A stretch of DNA of 64,000 nt from Nitrososphaerota archaeon. GTDB lineage: Archaea; Thermoproteota; Nitrososphaeria; Nitrososphaerales; JACPRH01. Shown in pieces: positions 1-63,845 of the stretch. Under the pieces are notes generated by a model that had not been told where the DNA came from, searched no databases, and saw nothing but the letters and a program-made list of their open reading frames with translations. Both the position numbers and the translations under genes were made by a program. The DNA is taken from the NCBI GenBank assembly GCA_016190055.1, contig JACPRH010000057.1, positions 2,434 to 66,433 of the forward strand. The letters run 5' to 3'. Position 1 is the first letter of the stretch, and every line of letters begins with the position of its first letter.

Positions 1-1018
1 CTCTCTCCAGTATCTCTTTCGACACCGACTCAACATCAGCATTTACAGTAAACGAGGCTGCTGTAGGATGACCTCCACCAACTCCACCGAAATGACCAGC
101 AACACCTTCAGCGATGTCACGCCCAAGATGAACACCCAACGCCTCGTAAAACTGTTGAGAAGCCCTGAGACAGCACCGAGCCTCCTCCTTATCCTCACCT
201 ACCGCCGCAGCAAAATCGGCGCCCAAATCAACCAACCCCCGCGCCACAGAGGCCTGATAGGAACCAACCTCCGTTAACGCAACCACCCAGTCACCGAGCC
301 GATACAGCGAAACCCGCTGCGTACCCTTCAACCGCGCAATACGTTCAGACGGGTCCCTGATAGCGCCAAGCGTCTCGACGGCCGACCCGATTGAAGCACC
401 TTTCCCGCATAAATCAGCTGCAGCCTGAACGGTATGAGCTGTTGAGAGCTTAAGATGCCTCGAATCCGCCAAGATACCGATCAACAAAACCTGCGCAACA
501 GCCTTAGTCACCGGAACATTCTGAGCCACCAGCAGATCATAAATTATTTCGCAGGTAGAGGTCGCCGATTCATCCAGCAGCAAATAGTCAGCGACCGTTT
601 TCACAGAGCCGCTCAGCGGGTGATGATCCAGAAAGATCTTTAGGCACCTTGCTTTTGCAAGGGGTTCCTGTAGATCCGCAAGCAGCTGCGGGTTACCGGT
701 GTCCACGACCACGACCAGATCCACGTCTTCAAAACCCGTATCCTCAGATGAACGAATAGGGTACTCTGATGCCACTCGCTTAGCAGGTATACTTAGCCCT
801 TCAGGAGTGACAACTGATACTCGAAGCCCCTTCCTAAGCCGTCTTAACAGGTAAGCGACCCCGTAAGCCGCGGAGTACGCGTCAACGTCAGCATGCTTAT
901 GGGTAAGAATTACCGCTCGTCGAAGGATATCCGGCTGAACATAAGGGAAGTGAGCTAAGGCTTCGTGGTACCGCTCAGCTGCCCTGCGGCTGGCCCCGGC
1001 TACGTGCAGCTTCTTCAA
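1..1018 (-). CDS. DHH/DHHA1 family phosphoesterase; 3' end runs off the window
   Basis: Absent from the ORF track because there is no in-window stop. My minus-strand translation in one fixed phase gives ILTHKHADVDAYSAAYG (motif I, ~878-910), VVVDTGNPQLL (motif II, ~690-715), FLDHHPLSG (DHH motif, ~608-634) and HFGGVGGGHPTA (DHHA1 GGGH, ~62-100). There is an in-frame stop at 1037-1039. TTG at 1018 is preceded by AGGAG. Confidence 0.7.
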   Translation of the reverse strand, partial: MKKLHVAGASRRAAERYHEALAHFPYVQPDILRRAVILTHKHADVDAYSAAYGVAYLLRRLRKGLRVSVVTPEGLSIPAKRVASEYPIRSSEDTGFEDVDLVVVVDTGNPQLLADLQEPLAKARCLKIFLDHHPLSGSVKTVADYLLLDESATSTCEIIYDLLVAQNVPVTKAVAQVLLIGILADSRHLKLSTAHTVQAAADLCGKGASIGSAVETLGAIRDPSERIARLKGTQRVSLYRLGDWVVALTEVGSYQASVARGLVDLGADFAAAVGEDKEEARCCLRASQQFYEALGVHLGRDIAEGVAGHFGGVGGGHPTAASFTVNADVESVSKEILER

Positions 1019-1343
1019 GCTTGGACTGAATCTCCTTCAGGGTTTCCCGGAGACGCGTCTCCTGCCGGGCCAGAACAGTGACCCGAGTGTTGCCGAGCTC
1101 ACGCCGCTCCTCAAGATCCTTCAACACATCAACCTTACTAGCCTTGATCAATAGTGACCCAGCTGACTTGTAAACCACCCCATCGTCAGGTGATTTCCGC
1201 AGCTCAGCCAAAGCCCGCTCCACCTCAGTCAACTCCATCTCAACCTGCTGCTTCTGAGCCAGAACCGCCTGTAAGCTCTGCTGATTCTGCTCAAACCGGG
1301 CGAGCTGTTCACGAAGCCACGGAGGAACTTCTTCTCGACTCAA
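975..1343 (-). CDS. pfdB: prefoldin beta subunit
   Basis: 122 aa coiled-coil protein. It shows QLARFEQNQQSLQAVLAQKQQVEMELTEVERALAEL ... VYKSAGSLLIKASK ... then a second coiled coil, the typical prefoldin beta layout, and sits in the exosome superoperon context. Confidence 0.85.
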   Translation of the reverse strand: MSREEVPPWLREQLARFEQNQQSLQAVLAQKQQVEMELTEVERALAELRKSPDDGVVYKSAGSLLIKASKVDVLKDLEERRELGNTRVTVLARQETRLRETLKEIQSKLEEAARSRGQPQGS

Positions 1344-56310: not shown

Positions 56311-57459
56311 ATGAATTCTAGTGGTATCGAAAAATTGGCGATTCGTGATCTGAGTGAGGATGCGCATATAGTGGAGCCTGATATGCCCATCTCCAAAGTT
56401 ATAGGTCTCCTCAGAGAATGGAACGTCTATCAGGTTTTCATGCAGCAGGAGGATAAGGTCGGCATGGTCTCAGTTCGGGACATCCTGAAGGTGGATAACA
56501 CTACTACGCAGAAGATTGAGTCAATAGTCACCTATATTCCTAAACTGGGCCCATCAGATCGAGCGGAACGAGCCGCTGACATTATGGAGAAGTACCGCAT
56601 CAGAGCACTGCCGATAGTTGAAAACCGCGAGATAACAGGACAAATTACCGCCCAAGGCATTGTCAAAGCGATAGATCGCAATGAGTTGAGAAATTACAAG
56701 ATTGGCAGCATTATGACAGGAGAGCCTCTTGTCTTGAACACCTCGGATCCGGCGACCAAAGCTAGGAGCATAATGATACAGAAGCGGATCGACCATCTGC
56801 CGGTTGTTGGCGACGGAAAGCTAGCAGGTATAGTCACATCCAGCAACATCATCTACAGAATAATACAGCCTGAAAGTGTGGGAACTGGAGCAATCGGCGC
56901 GCCAAAGAAGAACCAGCTGGACTACGCCGTGACACGGCTTATGGAGACTGATCCGGTTACCTGCGGGCTCGAAGATAAGATATCCGACGTCCTAGATAAG
57001 GTGCAGAAACGCGGAGCCACCTACGCCGTAGGATTACTCTGGTCAGAAGTTCAAGGAATAGTGACCTACCGCGATTTTCTGAAGCTAGCTGTCGCCAAGA
57101 AAGACATGCTCGAAGTCCCAATGTACATAGTGGGTTTACCTGAAGATCCGTTCGAATCTGAGGCGACGAGAGAAAAGTTCCGCAACACAGTGTCCGCATT
57201 AAAGAAGGCGTTCCCAGACATCACCGAAGCTAGATCAGTAATCAAAACCAAGGAAATCCGAAGCGACCGGCGAAGATACGAGGTGAGCATCTTCCTAACC
57301 ACACCCACTGAAACCCACTCATACACCGAAGGAGGCTACGACCTCCCATCAATCTACGACATCCTCGTAGAACGCATGAAGCGGCTGCTACCCCAGAGAC
57401 CCCGACGAATGAAGCGGCCTAGCGCAAGATTCAGAGAAGAGGAAACCTCTTCACCGTGA
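56311..57459 (+). CDS. four-CBS-domain protein with a C-terminal HPF/RaiA-like alpha/beta domain
   Basis: 382 aa. Four CBS motifs (aa ~8-260; e.g. IRALPIVENREITGQITAQGIV, IDHLPVVGDGKLAGIVTSSNI). The C-terminal aa 269-360 (57115-57390) align in pattern with bacterial HPF. Confidence 0.75.
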   Translation: MNSSGIEKLAIRDLSEDAHIVEPDMPISKVIGLLREWNVYQVFMQQEDKVGMVSVRDILKVDNTTTQKIESIVTYIPKLGPSDRAERAADIMEKYRIRALPIVENREITGQITAQGIVKAIDRNELRNYKIGSIMTGEPLVLNTSDPATKARSIMIQKRIDHLPVVGDGKLAGIVTSSNIIYRIIQPESVGTGAIGAPKKNQLDYAVTRLMETDPVTCGLEDKISDVLDKVQKRGATYAVGLLWSEVQGIVTYRDFLKLAVAKKDMLEVPMYIVGLPEDPFESEATREKFRNTVSALKKAFPDITEARSVIKTKEIRSDRRRYEVSIFLTTPTETHSYTEGGYDLPSIYDILVERMKRLLPQRPRRMKRPSARFREEETSSP

Positions 57460-57765: not shown

Positions 57766-58662
57766 TCACAGTAATGATGGAGTTTCACGCCAGCCGCGGA
57801 CGTAGAAGGACACGTCCTCAAGACTGGACTCGACGCCGAACCGTCGTTTAAAGAACCTTAGAATGTTCAACACATCACGATCAAGGAGGGTATCAGCATT
57901 AGGATGCGAACGATCAACGGCTTGAGGCCAGTCTATTAGCCATACATCAGTCCCATCGAAGATTACGTTGTACTCGCTGAGATCCCCGTTTATCACGCCG
58001 GCTTTCAAATATGCGGCTCGAACATTAGCTAGTATCTTCAGCAGAACACCTCTTGGATCATTCATCTCAGCGACGTTGACAAGTATATCGCCATCAATCC
58101 GCGGCATTAGCAACGCGTGACGCTCCCGGGCAATTACTTTCGGAACTGAAACTGAGTACTCGACAAGCTTCCTAAGCGCGTTGTATTCAGTCTTAGCGGC
58201 CTCGATGCTCATCAGGAACCAACGACGCGGAGACTCGCCTGCAAGATAGCTCCGCTTACGTCTAATAGCGCGGAAGCTCGCTCTACCAATCCGGTAAAAC
58301 TTAATCGCATATGAAACACCCGCTTCAGTAATAGCCTCATAGACATCGGACTCCTTCCCCACTCCAATAGGCTTACCCAGCGCGGAAATCAGATCCCTGT
58401 TTGCAAAGGCGTTAAGCGCAATAGCGTCAAGACCCGCGGTAACGAGAGAGTACCCGTTCGGATTGCGCATCACCAAACCATCTCTTTCAAGCCGACCTAA
58501 GCGAAACTCAATCTCCTCAGCAAAAAGATCAGTAGTCTTAGTCATCTTCGCAGGCTGCACATCCTCTTTAGCAGGCAAGTTCCGCTCAAGAGCATGAAGA
58601 ATCTTCCAGTCCTCACGCTCCAGCTGCTTCACGAGCTTAGCGGCCTGATCCGCCGACGACAT
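57766..58662 (-). CDS. rio2: RIO-type serine/threonine kinase Rio2 (N-terminal winged helix)
   Basis: 298 aa: wHTH (WKILHALERN...GLVMRN), GVGKESDVYEA, YAIKFYRIGRASFR, NGDLSEYNVI and LIDWPQAV. Confidence 0.85.
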   Translation of the reverse strand: MSSADQAAKLVKQLEREDWKILHALERNLPAKEDVQPAKMTKTTDLFAEEIEFRLGRLERDGLVMRNPNGYSLVTAGLDAIALNAFANRDLISALGKPIGVGKESDVYEAITEAGVSYAIKFYRIGRASFRAIRRKRSYLAGESPRRWFLMSIEAAKTEYNALRKLVEYSVSVPKVIARERHALLMPRIDGDILVNVAEMNDPRGVLLKILANVRAAYLKAGVINGDLSEYNVIFDGTDVWLIDWPQAVDRSHPNADTLLDRDVLNILRFFKRRFGVESSLEDVSFYVRGWRETPSLL

Positions 58663-58781: not shown

Positions 58782-60293
58782 TCAGCTTCGGAACCGTTCC
58801 AGTGAGATGCGCCCCTTCTCAGTTAGAACGTAGTACTGCCGTTCAGGTCGGCCGCTGACCTCTCGAACACCTGAGCGCCTCACCAATCCTATGCCTTCGA
58901 GCTCCTTCAAATGCTGGTAGACAACAGGAATCTTGACGGCCTTGCCGAACCGCTCCTCTAGCTGCTGCCGGATCTCGTAACCGTAAGCCTCCTTCCCGCT
59001 TAGAATCTCGAGAATCCGGAGCTTAGTTGGGCCCAACCGCGTGGTCAAGCTTCTATCCTCCACACTTCGAATCGCTATCTCAACCGATCTGGCCTTCTTC
59101 ACGAACCGTCGAGCCGCCGCCGGATCCTTCAACCCTGCACCAGTGATTACGCAGATAATCTCCTCGTCACGGTCAACTGCACCGGTCTCAACCAGCTTCT
59201 TCAAGCCGGCTATAGTGGATGCTGCAGCAGGCTCCGCGAATATCCCTTCACTCTTAGCTAAGAGGCTAGCGGCCTCCAAAATTTCCTTATCAGTTACTCC
59301 AGCACAGTCACCTCGCGACGATCTAATGGCGTCCAAAGCAAGATCACCCGCGGACGGAGACTCAATACTGATATCGTGCGCTAAAGTATCTGTACCATTA
59401 GTTATTCCTTCAACAGCATCCTCGTTTCGATTATACGCCTCAACAATTGGTGACGCACCAGCAGCTTGGATCCCAGTCATCTTCACGGTGGGCGGATCAA
59501 TGAGTCCGAGCTCGGAGAACTCATCTAACGCCTTCTTCATCATCGCCAAATGGCCTCCGCTGCCCATTGGAACAATTATTCGGTCGGGGAGCCGCCAACC
59601 CATCTGCTCAGCAATCTCGTAACCAGTGGTTTTCTCACCCTCCATGAAGTACGGGTTCTGCGTTGTTATGAGGAGGCTCTGCCGGTTGAGATGCTCGGCC
59701 CTAGCCACAGCAGACTCGTAATCCGGGGCCAGCTCAACCTTAGCGCCGAAGGCGATCATCTGGTAGAGCTTCCCTATATCTAGAGTCTTAGGCAGAAAAA
59801 TCGTCGCCCCAATACCGGCCTTAGCAGCGTAAGCGGAGAGAGAAGCACCCATGTTACCGGTAGCCCCGCAGCAAATCGATTCTGCACCCGACTCAACTGC
59901 TTTAGAAACAGCTACAGTGCAGCCTCTATCCACGAATGAACCGGTCGGATTCGTAGTCTCATCCTTAATGAGAATACGCTTCACCCCGATATGCTCGACA
60001 AGCCTGCTGCACTGGTGAAGATAGGTTCCCCCCTCCCCCAGCGACACAACATGCCTCAAATCACGTATCGGCAGCAGCTCAGAATACTTCCAGACGCTTG
60101 GTATACGCCGGCTGAGACTCTCGCGGCTCAGATGCTCAGCTACTCGACGGTAGTCATAACGGATCAGAAGGACTCCGCCGCATCGACGACAACGCGTTAA
60201 ACTGGCATCTAATGGATAGTCTCGGCCGCATCTACTGCATTTGGCCGCAACCGGGTCCGCGGGTGCCGCCGCCTCTGACATAGCCATCTTCAT
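58782..60293 (-). CDS. threonine-synthase-like PLP-fold protein lacking the catalytic lysine (SFVDRG), fused to a C-terminal PadR-type winged-helix domain
   Basis: N-terminal ThrC Zn ribbon CSRCGR...CRRCGG. KDETTNPTGSFVDRG, with codon GTG at 59930-59932 where ThrC has the PLP Lys. CGATGNMGASLSAYAAKAG, PMGSGG and ITGAGLKDP. The C-terminal ~100 aa read LRILEILSGKEAYGYEIRQQLEERFG...VVYQHLKELEGIGLVRR...RQYYVLTEKG (PadR). Start set at the ATG at 60293. Confidence 0.8.
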   Translation of the reverse strand: MKMAMSEAAAPADPVAAKCSRCGRDYPLDASLTRCRRCGGVLLIRYDYRRVAEHLSRESLSRRIPSVWKYSELLPIRDLRHVVSLGEGGTYLHQCSRLVEHIGVKRILIKDETTNPTGSFVDRGCTVAVSKAVESGAESICCGATGNMGASLSAYAAKAGIGATIFLPKTLDIGKLYQMIAFGAKVELAPDYESAVARAEHLNRQSLLITTQNPYFMEGEKTTGYEIAEQMGWRLPDRIIVPMGSGGHLAMMKKALDEFSELGLIDPPTVKMTGIQAAGASPIVEAYNRNEDAVEGITNGTDTLAHDISIESPSAGDLALDAIRSSRGDCAGVTDKEILEAASLLAKSEGIFAEPAAASTIAGLKKLVETGAVDRDEEIICVITGAGLKDPAAARRFVKKARSVEIAIRSVEDRSLTTRLGPTKLRILEILSGKEAYGYEIRQQLEERFGKAVKIPVVYQHLKELEGIGLVRRSGVREVSGRPERQYYVLTEKGRISLERFRS

Positions 60294-60354
60294 TCCTATA
60301 TATAGGCTATTACTTATATATGCTGGTACGGAGAGAACAGTCAAGGTATCACAC
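60294..60354. promoter_or_regulatory. 61-bp divergent promoter region with two TATA-like elements
   Basis: CCTATATATAGG (60295-60306, a perfect 12-bp palindrome) and TTATATAT (60314-60321). Assuming the usual ~25-nt TATA-to-TSS spacing, 60314-21 read on the minus strand suits a near-leaderless thrC-like mRNA. On the same assumption, 60296-305 read on the plus strand suits a TSS near 60330, upstream of GGAGAG and the ATG at 60355. Confidence 0.35.
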
Positions 60355-61122
60355 ATGGGCTTTAGACACAGGTTAAGCAGCCGAGAGCTCGCCGCGATGG
60401 GCGTCTTCACAGCCTTCGTCGCTGTAGCAACGATGATTGTCAGCGCCTACGTTCCCATTACAAGAGGATACTTCAACATAGGGGAAACTATGGTATACAC
60501 TGCCGCCCTTCTAATGGGGCCGATAGTAGGCGGCTTCGCCGGCGGAGTAGGCTCGATGATCGCCGATGTAGCGCTAGGCTATACAGCCTTCGCACCTGGG
60601 ACACTAATTATCAAGGGTGCCGAAGGGCTCATCGTAGGATACCTTGCCCAATATAGATTCAACTCAACCTCTAAAACACGAGTAACAATCCTAGCTGTTA
60701 CTGCCGGATTAATATTGGCGCTAGTTATCTGGTGGGGAGGAATATCATTCTTCACAGGAGATATAGAACTTACCTTCGGGGTCGCACCCAGCACCATCAC
60801 TCTGACACTCGGCGTTCCAGAGCTCTTCTGGACAGCTCTAGCGATAGCCGCCTTTCTACTGGTTACAACAGCTGGAGTCTACCTTGATCCACAAGTTAGC
60901 TGGCTAGTCTTCGTCATCCTACTAGGTGGCGCAGAGATGATAGTAGGATACTACTTCTACGAAACATACATCTTAGGCCAAGTACTTGCTGCAGCGGAGA
61001 TTCTCGTCAACGTAGGTCAGGTCATGATAGGACTAGTCGTTGCCATCCCTCTAGCTAGAAGCATAAACCGCATCATGCCGCGAAACCTCAGGCGACAACC
61101 AACCGTGGCCGAAGCAAAATAG
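60355..61122 (+). CDS. ECF-transporter S-component-like integral membrane protein
   Basis: ~255 aa with 6-7 TM helices. FNIGETMVYTAALLMGPIVGGFAGGVGSMIADVALGY...LIIKGAEGLIVGYL resembles vitamin-specific ECF S components. Start set at the ATG at 60355. Confidence 0.55.
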   Translation: MGFRHRLSSRELAAMGVFTAFVAVATMIVSAYVPITRGYFNIGETMVYTAALLMGPIVGGFAGGVGSMIADVALGYTAFAPGTLIIKGAEGLIVGYLAQYRFNSTSKTRVTILAVTAGLILALVIWWGGISFFTGDIELTFGVAPSTITLTLGVPELFWTALAIAAFLLVTTAGVYLDPQVSWLVFVILLGGAEMIVGYYFYETYILGQVLAAAEILVNVGQVMIGLVVAIPLARSINRIMPRNLRRQPTVAEAK

Positions 61123-61200: not shown

Positions 61201-62226
61201 TTGAAGAAGAAGCTTCCACTCGGCAAAGTTCCGTTAGAGGTTCTTCAACACCATATCCTCCCCTTCAAAGGCCAAACCTCACCTGACGTAAGGGTTGGCC
61301 CCGGAGTCGGAATAGACTTCGCAGCGGTGCGGCTCAATGATCAGCAATACCTGATAGTATCCTCAGACCCGATAACCGGTGTCGAGAAGGACATCGGCTG
61401 GTACGCCGTCAACGTCAACGCGAATGATGTAGCGACCAGCGGAGCTAAACCTATGTTCCTAGACTCAGTTATCCTCTTACCTGAAGGCGCAGATGAAAAC
61501 CTCGTTCGAGAGGTGGCTCAGCAAATCGGGGAGGCGGCCAAAGAAATTGGGTTGACAATCATTGGCGGGCACACCGAGGTGACACCGGGGCTGAAACGAG
61601 TAACGGTGGTCTTAACAGCCATCAGCGTAACTGAGAGATACGTTACGGCAGGGGATGCTGAAGCTGGAGATGCTATTCTGATGACCAAAACAGCAGGTAT
61701 CGAAGGAACATCCATCCTCGCCAGAACCTTCCGAGACCAGCTGAAAGCAATCAGTCAAGAAACCTTGGATAAGGCAGATCAGATGATTAGGCAGATCAGC
61801 GTCGTCAAAGACGCCTCAGCCCTCTTCTCAACCGGTAAAGTGCACGCTATGCATGATGCGACGGAAGGAGGTGTCCTCGAAGCCGTTTACGAGATGGCTT
61901 TAGCCTCAGGCCTCGGCTTCACGTTAAACTTGAAGGATATTCCGATCGCATATGAAACTGCTGTAATATGCAGATATCTAAAGGTGGATCCGACTCGACT
62001 GGTCGGATCCGGATGCCTCTTAGCCGCAGTCGAGCAGAGCAATGTAAACTCTGTTTTGAAGGAGCTTAGCAGCAACGGTATCCGTGGAACAGTAATCGGG
62101 CGGTTCGGTGGTCGAGGCAAGAAACTGGTCAAGCCTGACGGCTCAGTTGAGGAAGCTGAGGCTGTTGTGCTGGATGAGCTCTGGCGGCTAACCGGAGATC
62201 AGGCGGACGCAGGTATACGTGCCTGA
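61201..62226 (+). CDS. AIR synthase-related (PurM/HypE/ThiL/SelD superfamily) ATP-binding protein
   Basis: 341 aa: GIDFAAV..., VSSDPITG, NDVATSGAKP, GGHTEVTPG and DATEGG. TTG start. Confidence 0.7.
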   Translation: MKKKLPLGKVPLEVLQHHILPFKGQTSPDVRVGPGVGIDFAAVRLNDQQYLIVSSDPITGVEKDIGWYAVNVNANDVATSGAKPMFLDSVILLPEGADENLVREVAQQIGEAAKEIGLTIIGGHTEVTPGLKRVTVVLTAISVTERYVTAGDAEAGDAILMTKTAGIEGTSILARTFRDQLKAISQETLDKADQMIRQISVVKDASALFSTGKVHAMHDATEGGVLEAVYEMALASGLGFTLNLKDIPIAYETAVICRYLKVDPTRLVGSGCLLAAVEQSNVNSVLKELSSNGIRGTVIGRFGGRGKKLVKPDGSVEEAEAVVLDELWRLTGDQADAGIRA

Positions 62227-63845
62227 TACTTTTCAACAGCAGCTGAGATTAAGCCTCTGAAGACCGGTTCAGGAACTCCGGGTCGACTTAGGAATTCAGG
62301 GTGATACTGAACCGCCACATAATACGGGTGAGATGGAATCTCTAACACCTCGATTCTTCTGCCGTGATCGCTGCTGCCGGAAAAGACCATTCCCTGCGCT
62401 TCAAACTTCTCCCGATATTTCTGGTTGAACTCAAAACGGTGGCGGTGACGCTCTCTAATGGCTGACTGTCCGTAGAGCCGTTTCGCGACGCTACTCTCCA
62501 TCAAATCTATATTGATGCCGCCTAACCTCATCGTTGCACCCATATCCTGAATACCCTTCTGCTCTGGGAGAAGATCAATGACAGGATGCGGAGTATCAGG
62601 CTCAAGCTCCGTCGAGTTCGCACCTTCAAGGCCGCAGGCGTGTCGCGCAAACGAGACTAACGCTAACTGGAAGCCGAAGCATAGTCCCAGATAAGGAATA
62701 TTGTTCAGTCGCGCATGGTTAGCTGCTGCGACTTTGCCTTCACTTCCCCGTTTACCGAAGCCGCCTGGAATTATTATTGCATCATATTTTGAGAGAAGAC
62801 TCACCGACTCAGGGTTTGCTTCGAACTTCTCCGCCTCAACCCAGTCCACACGTGCTCGGAGACCCTGATCAGCGGCAGCATGCGAGAGCGCTTCATTCAC
62901 GCTGACATAGCTATCTGCAAGCGCCACATATTTTCCAACCATCGCGACATTAAGATCCCGCGAGGTGTTCATCAGCGAATCCACCACCTTCTTCCAAGAG
63001 TCCCAGGTAATCTGCCGCTCACCGAGGCGAAGATGCTCGCAAACAGGCTGCAGAATTCCTTCGGACGCCAAGACCTGCGGCACCATGTAAATGGTCTTCA
63101 CATCAGGGTTAGATACGACGTTCTTCAACGGGACATTAGCGAAGAGAGAAATCTTGTCCTTTGACTCCTTCGTCAAAGGCATATGAGCGCGGACTACAAG
63201 CACGTCAGGCTGAATACCGATGCGCCTAAGCTCCTGAACACTGTGCTGAGTCGGCTTCGTCTTCTGCTCCCCAACCATGTCAAGCATCGGCGCCAACGTA
63301 ACATGAACAAACAACGTGTTCTCCAAACCGTCCTGAAGCCGCATCTGCCTAAACGCTTCAAGAAACGGCAGACTCTCAATGTCGCCGACGGTGCCGCCGC
63401 ACTCAACAAGCAGGACATCAACCTCGGTCTTCTGAGCCAGCTTGCGTATGCTCCTCTTTATCGCATCAGTAATGTTCGGGATAATCTGGACACAGCGGCC
63501 CAGATAGTCGCCTTTACGCTCCCGGTTAATCACTTCAAGGTAGATTTGACCGGTCGTAATGTTATGCGCCCTCGAAAGATTCTGGTTCAGGAAGCGCTCA
63601 TACGTGCCGATATCCATGTCGGTCTCGCCTCCATCATCCGTGACGAAAACCTCGCCGTGGATCAAAGGGTTCATAGTCCCAGCGTCCACGTTCAGATACG
63701 GATCAACCTTTACGCAGGACACCTTAAGACCAGTATTCTGGAGAAGCTTAGCAATAGAGGCGGAGGTCACGCCCTTGCCTAGACCAGACATGACGCCACC
63801 AGTCACAAATATGAACTTCGCTTGTTTAGGGTCAGGCACACTCAA
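62199..63845 (-). CDS. pyrG: CTP synthase
   Basis: 548 aa: KFIFVTGGVMSGLGKG, GTMNPLIHGEVFVTDDG, GGTVGDIES, and a GATase domain with GLCFGFQ and HRHRFE. TTG start preceded by GGAG. Confidence 0.95.
   Translation of the reverse strand: MSVPDPKQAKFIFVTGGVMSGLGKGVTSASIAKLLQNTGLKVSCVKVDPYLNVDAGTMNPLIHGEVFVTDDGGETDMDIGTYERFLNQNLSRAHNITTGQIYLEVINRERKGDYLGRCVQIIPNITDAIKRSIRKLAQKTEVDVLLVECGGTVGDIESLPFLEAFRQMRLQDGLENTLFVHVTLAPMLDMVGEQKTKPTQHSVQELRRIGIQPDVLVVRAHMPLTKESKDKISLFANVPLKNVVSNPDVKTIYMVPQVLASEGILQPVCEHLRLGERQITWDSWKKVVDSLMNTSRDLNVAMVGKYVALADSYVSVNEALSHAAADQGLRARVDWVEAEKFEANPESVSLLSKYDAIIIPGGFGKRGSEGKVAAANHARLNNIPYLGLCFGFQLALVSFARHACGLEGANSTELEPDTPHPVIDLLPEQKGIQDMGATMRLGGINIDLMESSVAKRLYGQSAIRERHRHRFEFNQKYREKFEAQGMVFSGSSDHGRRIEVLEIPSHPYYVAVQYHPEFLSRPGVPEPVFRGLISAAVEKYQARIPASA

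Follow-up and report, generated by a model that had tools for sequence, protein, structure and literature searches.

The subject of this analysis is a gene on the reverse strand of a 64,000-nucleotide stretch of Nitrososphaerota DNA (GenBank assembly GCA_016190055.1, contig JACPRH010000057.1, positions 2,434 to 66,433), which as a whole we call the window and whose own numbering is used throughout. At 58782–60293 this gene encodes a fusion of a threonine synthase (ThrC)-like domain, related to enzymes that use pyridoxal 5'-phosphate (PLP), with a PadR-type winged helix-turn-helix (wHTH) domain. The reading frame runs from an ATG at 60293 to a TGA at 58782–58784 and specifies 503 residues; the NCBI models of homologues that are 99% identical begin at the second ATG, at 60287, which gives 501. 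A longer version starting from a GTG at 60410 was considered and judged implausible, because the promoter/operator and the neighbouring gene would then be read through. That neighbour, transcribed in the opposite direction, encodes the substrate-binding component of a putative vitamin transporter, and between the two genes lies a predicted operator.

Domain architecture and the missing Schiff-base lysine

The protein begins with a Cys4 zinc ribbon (C19, C22, C35, C38; 60180–60239, reverse strand), the cysteines of which are invariant in the family alignment, and canonical ThrC of the same subfamily also has such an N-terminal ribbon. There follows a fold-type II PLP-enzyme domain of the ThrC type, the predicted sensor module, at residues 83–385 (59139–60047, reverse strand; Pfam PF00291 (PALP), E 3.9e-68). 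Its glycine loop PMGSGGH and its ITGAGLKDP motif are both conserved in the family, and the ThrC architecture that an earlier note had read from the letters of this DNA (Cys4 ribbon, active-site motif, glycine loop and TGxGLKDP) is thereby upheld. The same note had seen a PadR pattern at the C-terminus. Here, too, the domain search agrees: residues 427–499 (58797–59015, reverse strand) match PF03551 with an E-value of 1.8e-14 and 53.9 bits against a cut-off of 27, and two PadR proteins in the PDB match the C-terminal domain, 5DYM (E 5e-8) and 4ESF (E 9e-6). A GntR-type wHTH found no match in the Pfam search of the window protein.

The predicted structure is of a piece with these assignments. 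In an AlphaFold2 model with a mean predicted local distance difference test score (pLDDT) of 84, a disordered linker at residues 387–403 gives way to a canonical wHTH of three helices and then a beta-hairpin wing, and the best structures returned by Foldseek are those of ThrC (2ZSJ, 6CGQ and 1UIM), with a probability of 1.0 and template modelling (TM) scores of 0.83–0.85 on the target. The models for the enzyme itself also recognize the protein, which scores 323.6 bits against NF006050, the NCBIfam model for ThrC (cut-off 303), and 216 against TIGR00260 (cut-off 167). A further model named “threonine synthase”, NF004170/PRK05638, has 442 positions and aligns to residues 18–501, and hence spans the wHTH.

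What the domain has lost is the lysine that would hold PLP as a Schiff base. In pairwise alignments to four solved ThrC structures, with which the window protein is 35–38% identical, its NPTGSFVDRG stands opposite NPTGSFKDRG without a gap, and Val121 is the counterpart of K61 of Thermus thermophilus ThrC, as counted in the alignment to 1UIM. The replacement of this lysine by valine, the central claim of the earlier note, is confirmed by this register; its codon GTG is indeed two changes away from AAG, while the coordinates given for it, 59930–59932, need correcting to 59931–59933 (reverse strand). The possibility that the lysine has merely shifted by one or two residues is ruled out by the ungapped alignments of the motif to the four structures. 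Nor did the family alignment, or a residue-by-residue comparison of 49 fusions with 34 canonical ThrC, reveal any new lysine conserved in the fusions only: the lysines that the fusions do conserve in their ThrC-like domain, K110, K175, K221 and K389, all match lysines of solved or canonical ThrC.

In that same comparison the lysine position holds I, L, M or V in the fusions, as opposed to K in 34 of the 34 canonical enzymes. A second position, that of R160 of the T. thermophilus enzyme, is F, L, I or V in the fusions, where 82% of canonical ThrC have R; its residue in the window protein is Phe216 (codon TTC, 59646–59648, reverse strand). The full set of changes from T. thermophilus ThrC to the window protein that we followed is K61V, T88M, N154T, S155T and R160F. 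The residues of the PLP pocket are otherwise at least 90% common to fusions and true ThrC; the fusions without exception keep F120, N147, the G244-x-G246 phosphate loop and T384-G385-x-G387-L-K389, most of which the true enzymes have as well. Judged from its sequence, the ThrC-derived domain would have lost catalysis and the protein would not be a threonine synthase. The joint loss of the lysine and R160 supports the suggestion, also made earlier, that in a transcription factor of the PadR type a dead ThrC fold would have been recruited to bind the ligand.

The fusion is no accident of one genome. All 120 of the best database homologues share the PALP–PadR architecture, with I (63), V (27), L (22), M (3), T (2) or S (1) at the critical position, and two outliers, which fall outside the motif pattern, likewise have no K there. 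Their sources are Nitrososphaerales, Bathyarchaeia, and Odin-, Thor- and Promethearchaeota, and the family also extends to Thermoplasmata; where the databases name these homologues at all, they do so as “threonine synthase”. When one genome was scanned for each GTDB species, 80 loci came out. The fusion is present at 49 independent genome loci, and across the scan the proteins that span the PadR domain all lack the lysine, while the ThrC homologues that end at about 390–420 all keep NPTGSFKDRG. A frameshift or missed stop, either of which had been raised as a way in which the fusion might be spurious, is excluded by the recurrence of the same in-frame architecture in the best 120 homologues and the 49 loci. 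Among the best 150 representatives of clusters at 50% identity, 66 are PadR fusions without the lysine and 67 are non-fusions with it, the exceptions belonging to a sister subgroup, also fused to a wHTH, in which this position is R, K or S (K in two of them). No canonical thrC was found within the window; one metagenome-assembled genome (MAG) of a heimdallarchaeon (Heimdallarchaeota, b1.sp2_bin.26) has both a fusion (L056) and a canonical, lysine-bearing ThrC (L058). The single case of the earlier note is thus one member of a large, ancient and pan-archaeal family.

Two other groups of ThrC fusions came to light alongside it. The sister ThrC–wHTH subfamily has members of 441–475 residues (L210, P0176, P0194, P0195, P0206, P0221, P0242 and P0264); at L210 (5001–6326 in the numbering of that locus, which is part of CP015193.1, a Thermococcales-like complete genome of 1.96 Mb) the gene begins 4 bp downstream of one for a KH/beta-CASP (aCPSF1-like) protein. 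Neither B6 genes nor the operator described below were found for this R/K/S subfamily at L210 and L211, the contigs of L207–L209 being too short to tell. Nine further proteins of 610–633 residues (P0198, P0209, P0213, P0225, P0227, P0232, P0234, P0239 and P0254) have a canonical ThrC part, with the lysine and arginine kept, and carry about 200 extra C-terminal residues. In P0198 and P0227, the two that were run through Pfam, this extra region is the LeuA allosteric domain, PF08502, which would make these proteins another kind of regulatory ThrC fusion.

Vitamin B6 genes and a predicted operator beside the fusion

The divergent neighbour of the fusion gene, at 60355–61122 on the forward strand, encodes an S-component of the energy-coupling factor (ECF) type that belongs to the PdxU/PdxU2 family (Pfam PF07155, E 3.5e-27) and is the predicted regulated target. 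Its sole match in the PDB is chain S of 4HZU (HmpT/PdxU2; E 1.3e-11). Pyridoxamine has been identified as one substrate of HmpT (PMC4860826), and PdxU and PdxU2, which are assigned to COG4720/PF07155, are two of only three known prokaryotic transporters of vitamin B6 (PMC9997740). PF07155 also includes S-components for other substrates, so that B6 transport by this neighbour is a prediction; in NCBIfam it matches the folate and riboflavin S-component families, in every case with a score under the cut-off.

This neighbourhood recurs. Thirty non-redundant genome loci, the window included, have a PF07155 S-component gene next to the fusion, mostly in divergent orientation, and in seven loci (L005, L020, L021, L028, L029, L039 and L047), drawn from Bathyarchaeia, Thermoplasmata/Methanobacteriota and Nitrososphaerota, it is pdxS-pdxT, encoding PLP synthase, that stands divergent from the fusion. 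At one metagenome locus (L159, 6803–10607) the two arrangements are combined as a pdxS-pdxT-ECF-S operon divergent from the regulator, which is the most direct link we have seen between the PF07155 S-component family and PLP synthesis. Only the PdxU-like S-component and pdxST are conserved as neighbours across phyla, and no threonine, homoserine or aspartate-pathway gene was found as a conserved neighbour among the genome loci compared. Rubrerythrin, desulfoferrodoxin, topoisomerase IB, a VIT-family protein, PAC2 and an EamA transporter also recur, and were set aside as functional partners, as lineage-specific synteny unrelated to B6. In the bathyarchaeotal locus L008 an EamA-family transporter gene (89–1060, reverse strand) takes the place of the S-component as divergent neighbour, with the operator present at 29.9 bits; this transporter could be an alternative B6 carrier.

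The predicted operator of the window, ATATATAAG-TAATAG-CCTATATATAGG, is 27 bp long (60295–60321, reverse strand) and matches the consensus ATATATAAG-N6-CCTATATATAGG exactly. It lies one base upstream of the ATG at 60293 and 33 nt from the start of the divergent S-component gene, inside the interval 60294–60354 that the earlier note had named for DNA-binding tests, and it overlaps TATA-like core-promoter elements of both the regulator gene and its divergent target. A scan of the window that allowed up to three mismatches found this one match, against none in 100 shuffles; a scan of the locus for bacterial-type promoters and terminators found nothing, as expected for an archaeon. With up to 5 mismatches in 21 positions, and always with the 6-nt spacer, the motif is present upstream of the fusion gene in 35 loci that span Thaumarchaeota, Bathyarchaeota, Aigarchaeota, Asgard and Thermoplasmata, and in its fixed-spacer form it precedes the gene in about 38 of 46 genome loci. 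When a position weight matrix (PWM) was run over the 1.34 Mb of fetched loci, all matches above 19 bits fell immediately 5' of fusion genes, among them those of five loci that had been left out of the construction of the matrix. A weaker site, of 17.3 bits, is found in L009 at an ECF-S gene 2.4 kb from the regulator; extra boxes are present in L028, as a perfectly palindromic pair, and in L023, as a third box.

A search of public metagenomes with the exact operator pattern extends this picture. It returned 120 loci, in 94 of which the fusion gene lies immediately downstream in the same orientation; the divergent gene is an ECF-S gene in 84 of those 94 and pdxS in three. A further nine are found at an ECF-S or a pdxS gene beside which no fusion gene was detected. 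In some of these the contig ends too near the site to tell, while L113, L140, L191/L111 and L149 have room for the gene and show none. The remaining 17 of the 120 seem unrelated, which is about the number estimated by hand to arise by chance. One exact match (L174, 1251–1276) falls between ThiF/MoeB-like and Thi4-like (thiazole synthase) genes, as named from their N-terminal sequences, and may have arisen by chance or point to a connection with thiamine genes.

In line with the invariant core of the operator, the recognition helix of the wHTH, S[VI]YQHL, is invariant in all fusions. Variants of the operator do occur by lineage, CCCATATATGG in pdxS-linked Bathyarchaeia and an ending in ATCGG in one clade of Nitrososphaerales, and there are faint indications, confounded by phylogeny, that they track lineage-specific changes next to the helix. 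Gene context and operator together tie the fusion to vitamin B6 and not to threonine metabolism, a connection that the earlier note had missed.

In the window the S-component gene is followed on its 3' side by a gene of the AIR-synthase/PurM superfamily (61201–62226, forward strand; Pfam AIRS/AIRS_C), the product of which scores below cut-off with the models for HypE, ThiL and SelD. Nitrososphaerales conserve this pair, the two genes often overlapping by 4 bp, and the same succession was noted at L011, L040, L049, L034, L032 and L043. The PurM-like gene is probably an operon partner and a member of the regulon in Nitrososphaerales; by analogy with ThiL-like chemistry, its product might be an unrecognized kinase for imported B6 vitamers.

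The other genes nearby complete the description of the locus. Directly downstream of the regulator lies a gene for a RIO2-type kinase (57766–58662, reverse strand), and a related RIO-type gene occupies the 3' side of the regulator at L010 too and, as judged by clustering, at L035. Farther off are a protein with four CBS domains (56311–57459, forward strand) and, as read from the translation of its open reading frame, CTP synthase (62199–63845, reverse strand).

A candidate PLP-responsive repressor and its alternatives

We consider it likely that the fusion protein is a PLP-sensing, autoregulated repressor that controls genes of vitamin B6 uptake and synthesis; within this proposal we infer each of three elements, namely PLP as the ligand, the binding of DNA, and the sign of regulation. 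The ThrC-derived pocket would bind PLP, or a different phosphorylated B6 vitamer, non-covalently and reversibly. Given that there is no lysine with which to form a Schiff base, PLP could be bound in no other way, and such binding would suit a sensor of concentration. The C-terminal PadR wHTH would bind the inverted-repeat operator, probably as a dimer, since ThrC and PadR proteins are both dimers. When PLP is plentiful, the holo-protein would occupy the operator and block the TATA-binding protein (TBP), transcription factor B (TFB) and RNA polymerase, and the genes so repressed would be the PdxU-like importer (together with the PurM-like gene in the window, or pdxS-pdxT in other lineages) and the regulator itself. 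Because the operator lies on TATA-like elements, close to both starts, the simplest model would be promoter occlusion with PLP as co-repressor.

Several considerations weigh against this proposal. That PLP is bound at all without the lysine is something we assume from the conservation of the pocket. The direction of control is likewise one that we infer, and the action could be that of a co-repressor or of an anti-activator. T88, N154, S155 and R160 of T. thermophilus ThrC are residues that we take to be those binding the phosphate of O-phosphohomoserine, and the argument that the ancestral substrate site is gone leans on this assumption. In about one-fifth of the loci no B6 gene adjoins the regulator. 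The boxes of the operator are themselves TATA-like, so that part of their conservation could reflect promoter function. Finally, function may not be uniform over all ThrC–wHTH fusions, seeing that the sister subfamily has neither the B6 neighbours nor the operator.

The alternative that survives best, which we nevertheless regard as unlikely, is that the protein senses a metabolite of amino-acid or threonine metabolism (O-phosphohomoserine, homoserine, threonine or a PLP–amino-acid adduct), with the substrate site of ThrC turned into an effector site. The domain does descend from ThrC, many enzyme-derived regulators sense the substrate of their ancestor, and PLP without its lysine could be a permanent cofactor that binds amino acids as external aldimines. 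On the other hand, the presumed O-phosphohomoserine phosphate residues have become hydrophobic or neutral throughout the family (R160 to F, L or I; T88 to M), the conserved neighbours include no gene of the threonine, homoserine or aspartate pathways, and those neighbours that persist from phylum to phylum are the PdxU-like S-component and pdxST alone.

It is also unlikely, in our estimation, that the motif is simply a strong bidirectional core promoter made of two TATA boxes, the protein being a PadR regulator of something else, or one that stores or chaperones PLP and adjoins the B6 genes through co-expression and not regulation. Both boxes are TATA-rich and lie at promoter distance from the start codons, as such an arrangement would have them. 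A promoter of this kind does not account for the flanks AAG-N6-CC...AGG and the exact 6-nt spacer, kept from Thaumarchaeota to Asgard and Thermoplasmata, for the absence of the motif from all other genes in the 1.34 Mb scanned, for its association with the regulator gene whichever neighbour is present, or for the cases (L113, L140, L191/L111 and L149) in which it stands at pdxS or ECF-S with no regulator detected alongside. As PWM matches above 19 bits are confined to the upstream regions of fusion genes, the motif is probably not a generic archaeal promoter, an explanation that the PWM specificity scan and the shuffles largely reject.

That the protein is still a working enzyme (a threonine synthase or another β/γ-replacement enzyme) that also binds DNA can be given very little credence: it does exceed the ThrC equivalog cut-off of NF006050, and archaeal enzyme-regulators can remain active, as RbkR does (PMC5397151), but the Schiff-base lysine is missing from the best 120 homologues and 66 diverse representatives alike, no compensating lysine is conserved, the arginine presumed to bind substrate has gone as well, and the Heimdallarchaeota MAG keeps a canonical ThrC beside its fusion.

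Relation to known regulators and implications

If the fusion protein is such a PLP-responsive repressor, its closest counterpart in logic is the bacterial PdxR/MocR family, in which a GntR wHTH is joined to a fold-type I domain resembling the aminotransferases; in both cases the fold of a PLP enzyme would act as the sensor on a wHTH. Covalent binding of PLP through a retained lysine is the general rule among MocR proteins; in the fusion family this lysine is replaced. The PLP fold is of type I in the one and of type II, ThrC-like, in the other, and the DNA-binding domain is an N-terminal GntR in MocR/PdxR and a C-terminal PadR in the fusion. The fusion and PdxR are analogous and not homologous, the fusion lying outside the MocR family by both of that family's defining features. 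The two are alike in typically being divergent from pdxST or from B6 transporter genes of the PdxU family and in being autoregulated, autoregulation of the fusion being predicted (PMC5320631 for MocR/PdxR). MocR/PdxR regulators are reported to be absent from Archaea (PMC5320631), and the role of a B6 regulator would therefore be otherwise unfilled there.

Each half of the protein also has relatives of its own. With ThrC (EC 4.2.3.1, of the zinc-ribbon subfamily NF006050/PRK08197) it has the fold, the ribbon and the residues of the PLP pocket in common; it differs in lacking the catalytic lysine and the presumed phosphate-binding residues, in carrying a PadR domain, and in a gene context of B6 and not of threonine. 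With PadR repressors such as B. subtilis PadR and LmrR it shares the wHTH and, as predicted for the fusion, the regulation of an adjacent gene and of itself, and the half-sites of the predicted inverted-repeat operator are centred about 11–12 bp from each other, as in the ATGT-N8-ACAT boxes of PadR. Classical PadR proteins have about 110–180 residues and take their ligand at the dimer interface or in a C-terminal domain, while the fusion has a pseudoenzyme of about 400 residues ahead of the wHTH, which presumably provides both ligand binding and dimerization.

Within Archaea the proposal has two precedents. RbkR, a riboflavin kinase joined to a wHTH (PMC5397151), is, like the proposed regulator, an archaeal protein with an enzyme domain as sensor and with synthesis and transport genes of the same vitamin as targets, and ThiR, as cited in PMC10746257, joins a ThiN-like to a DNA-binding domain in the same concept. 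Compared with these, the vitamin here would be B6, and the sensor derives from an enzyme that uses PLP and not from the vitamin's own pathway. RbkR, moreover, stays catalytically active, whereas the fusion protein cannot form an internal aldimine.

A full-text literature search, with subscription journals largely outside its reach, turned up no description of a ThrC–PadR regulator or of any archaeal B6 regulator, and a 2023 survey of PLP synthesis and salvage left regulators and transporters to an earlier bacterial study (PMC9997740). We would put at about even the chances of the whole picture: the first B6 (PLP)-responsive transcription factor of Archaea, in the form of an ancient family of lysine-less ThrC pseudoenzymes, binding PLP reversibly and repressing B6 import and PLP synthase genes at the 27-bp operator, with a regulon that in Nitrososphaerales also includes a PurM/ThiL-like protein, possibly a B6 salvage kinase of a new type.

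For annotation, the consequence is a systematic error, as many archaeal proteins now called “threonine synthase” would, on the evidence of their active-site residues, be unable to be that enzyme; the misannotation affects metabolic reconstructions and predictions of auxotrophy for MAGs of Thaumarchaeota, Bathyarchaeota and Asgard archaea. For the evolution of regulators, the path from pseudoenzyme to sensor would be convergent with that of MocR, with another PLP fold and another DNA-binding domain put to the same logic. For the biology of these archaea, the control of vitamin B6 homeostasis now has a candidate, with a defined operator, a ligand hypothesis and target genes, and the predicted regulon gives clues to what an archaeal B6 transporter and the PurM-like protein may do.

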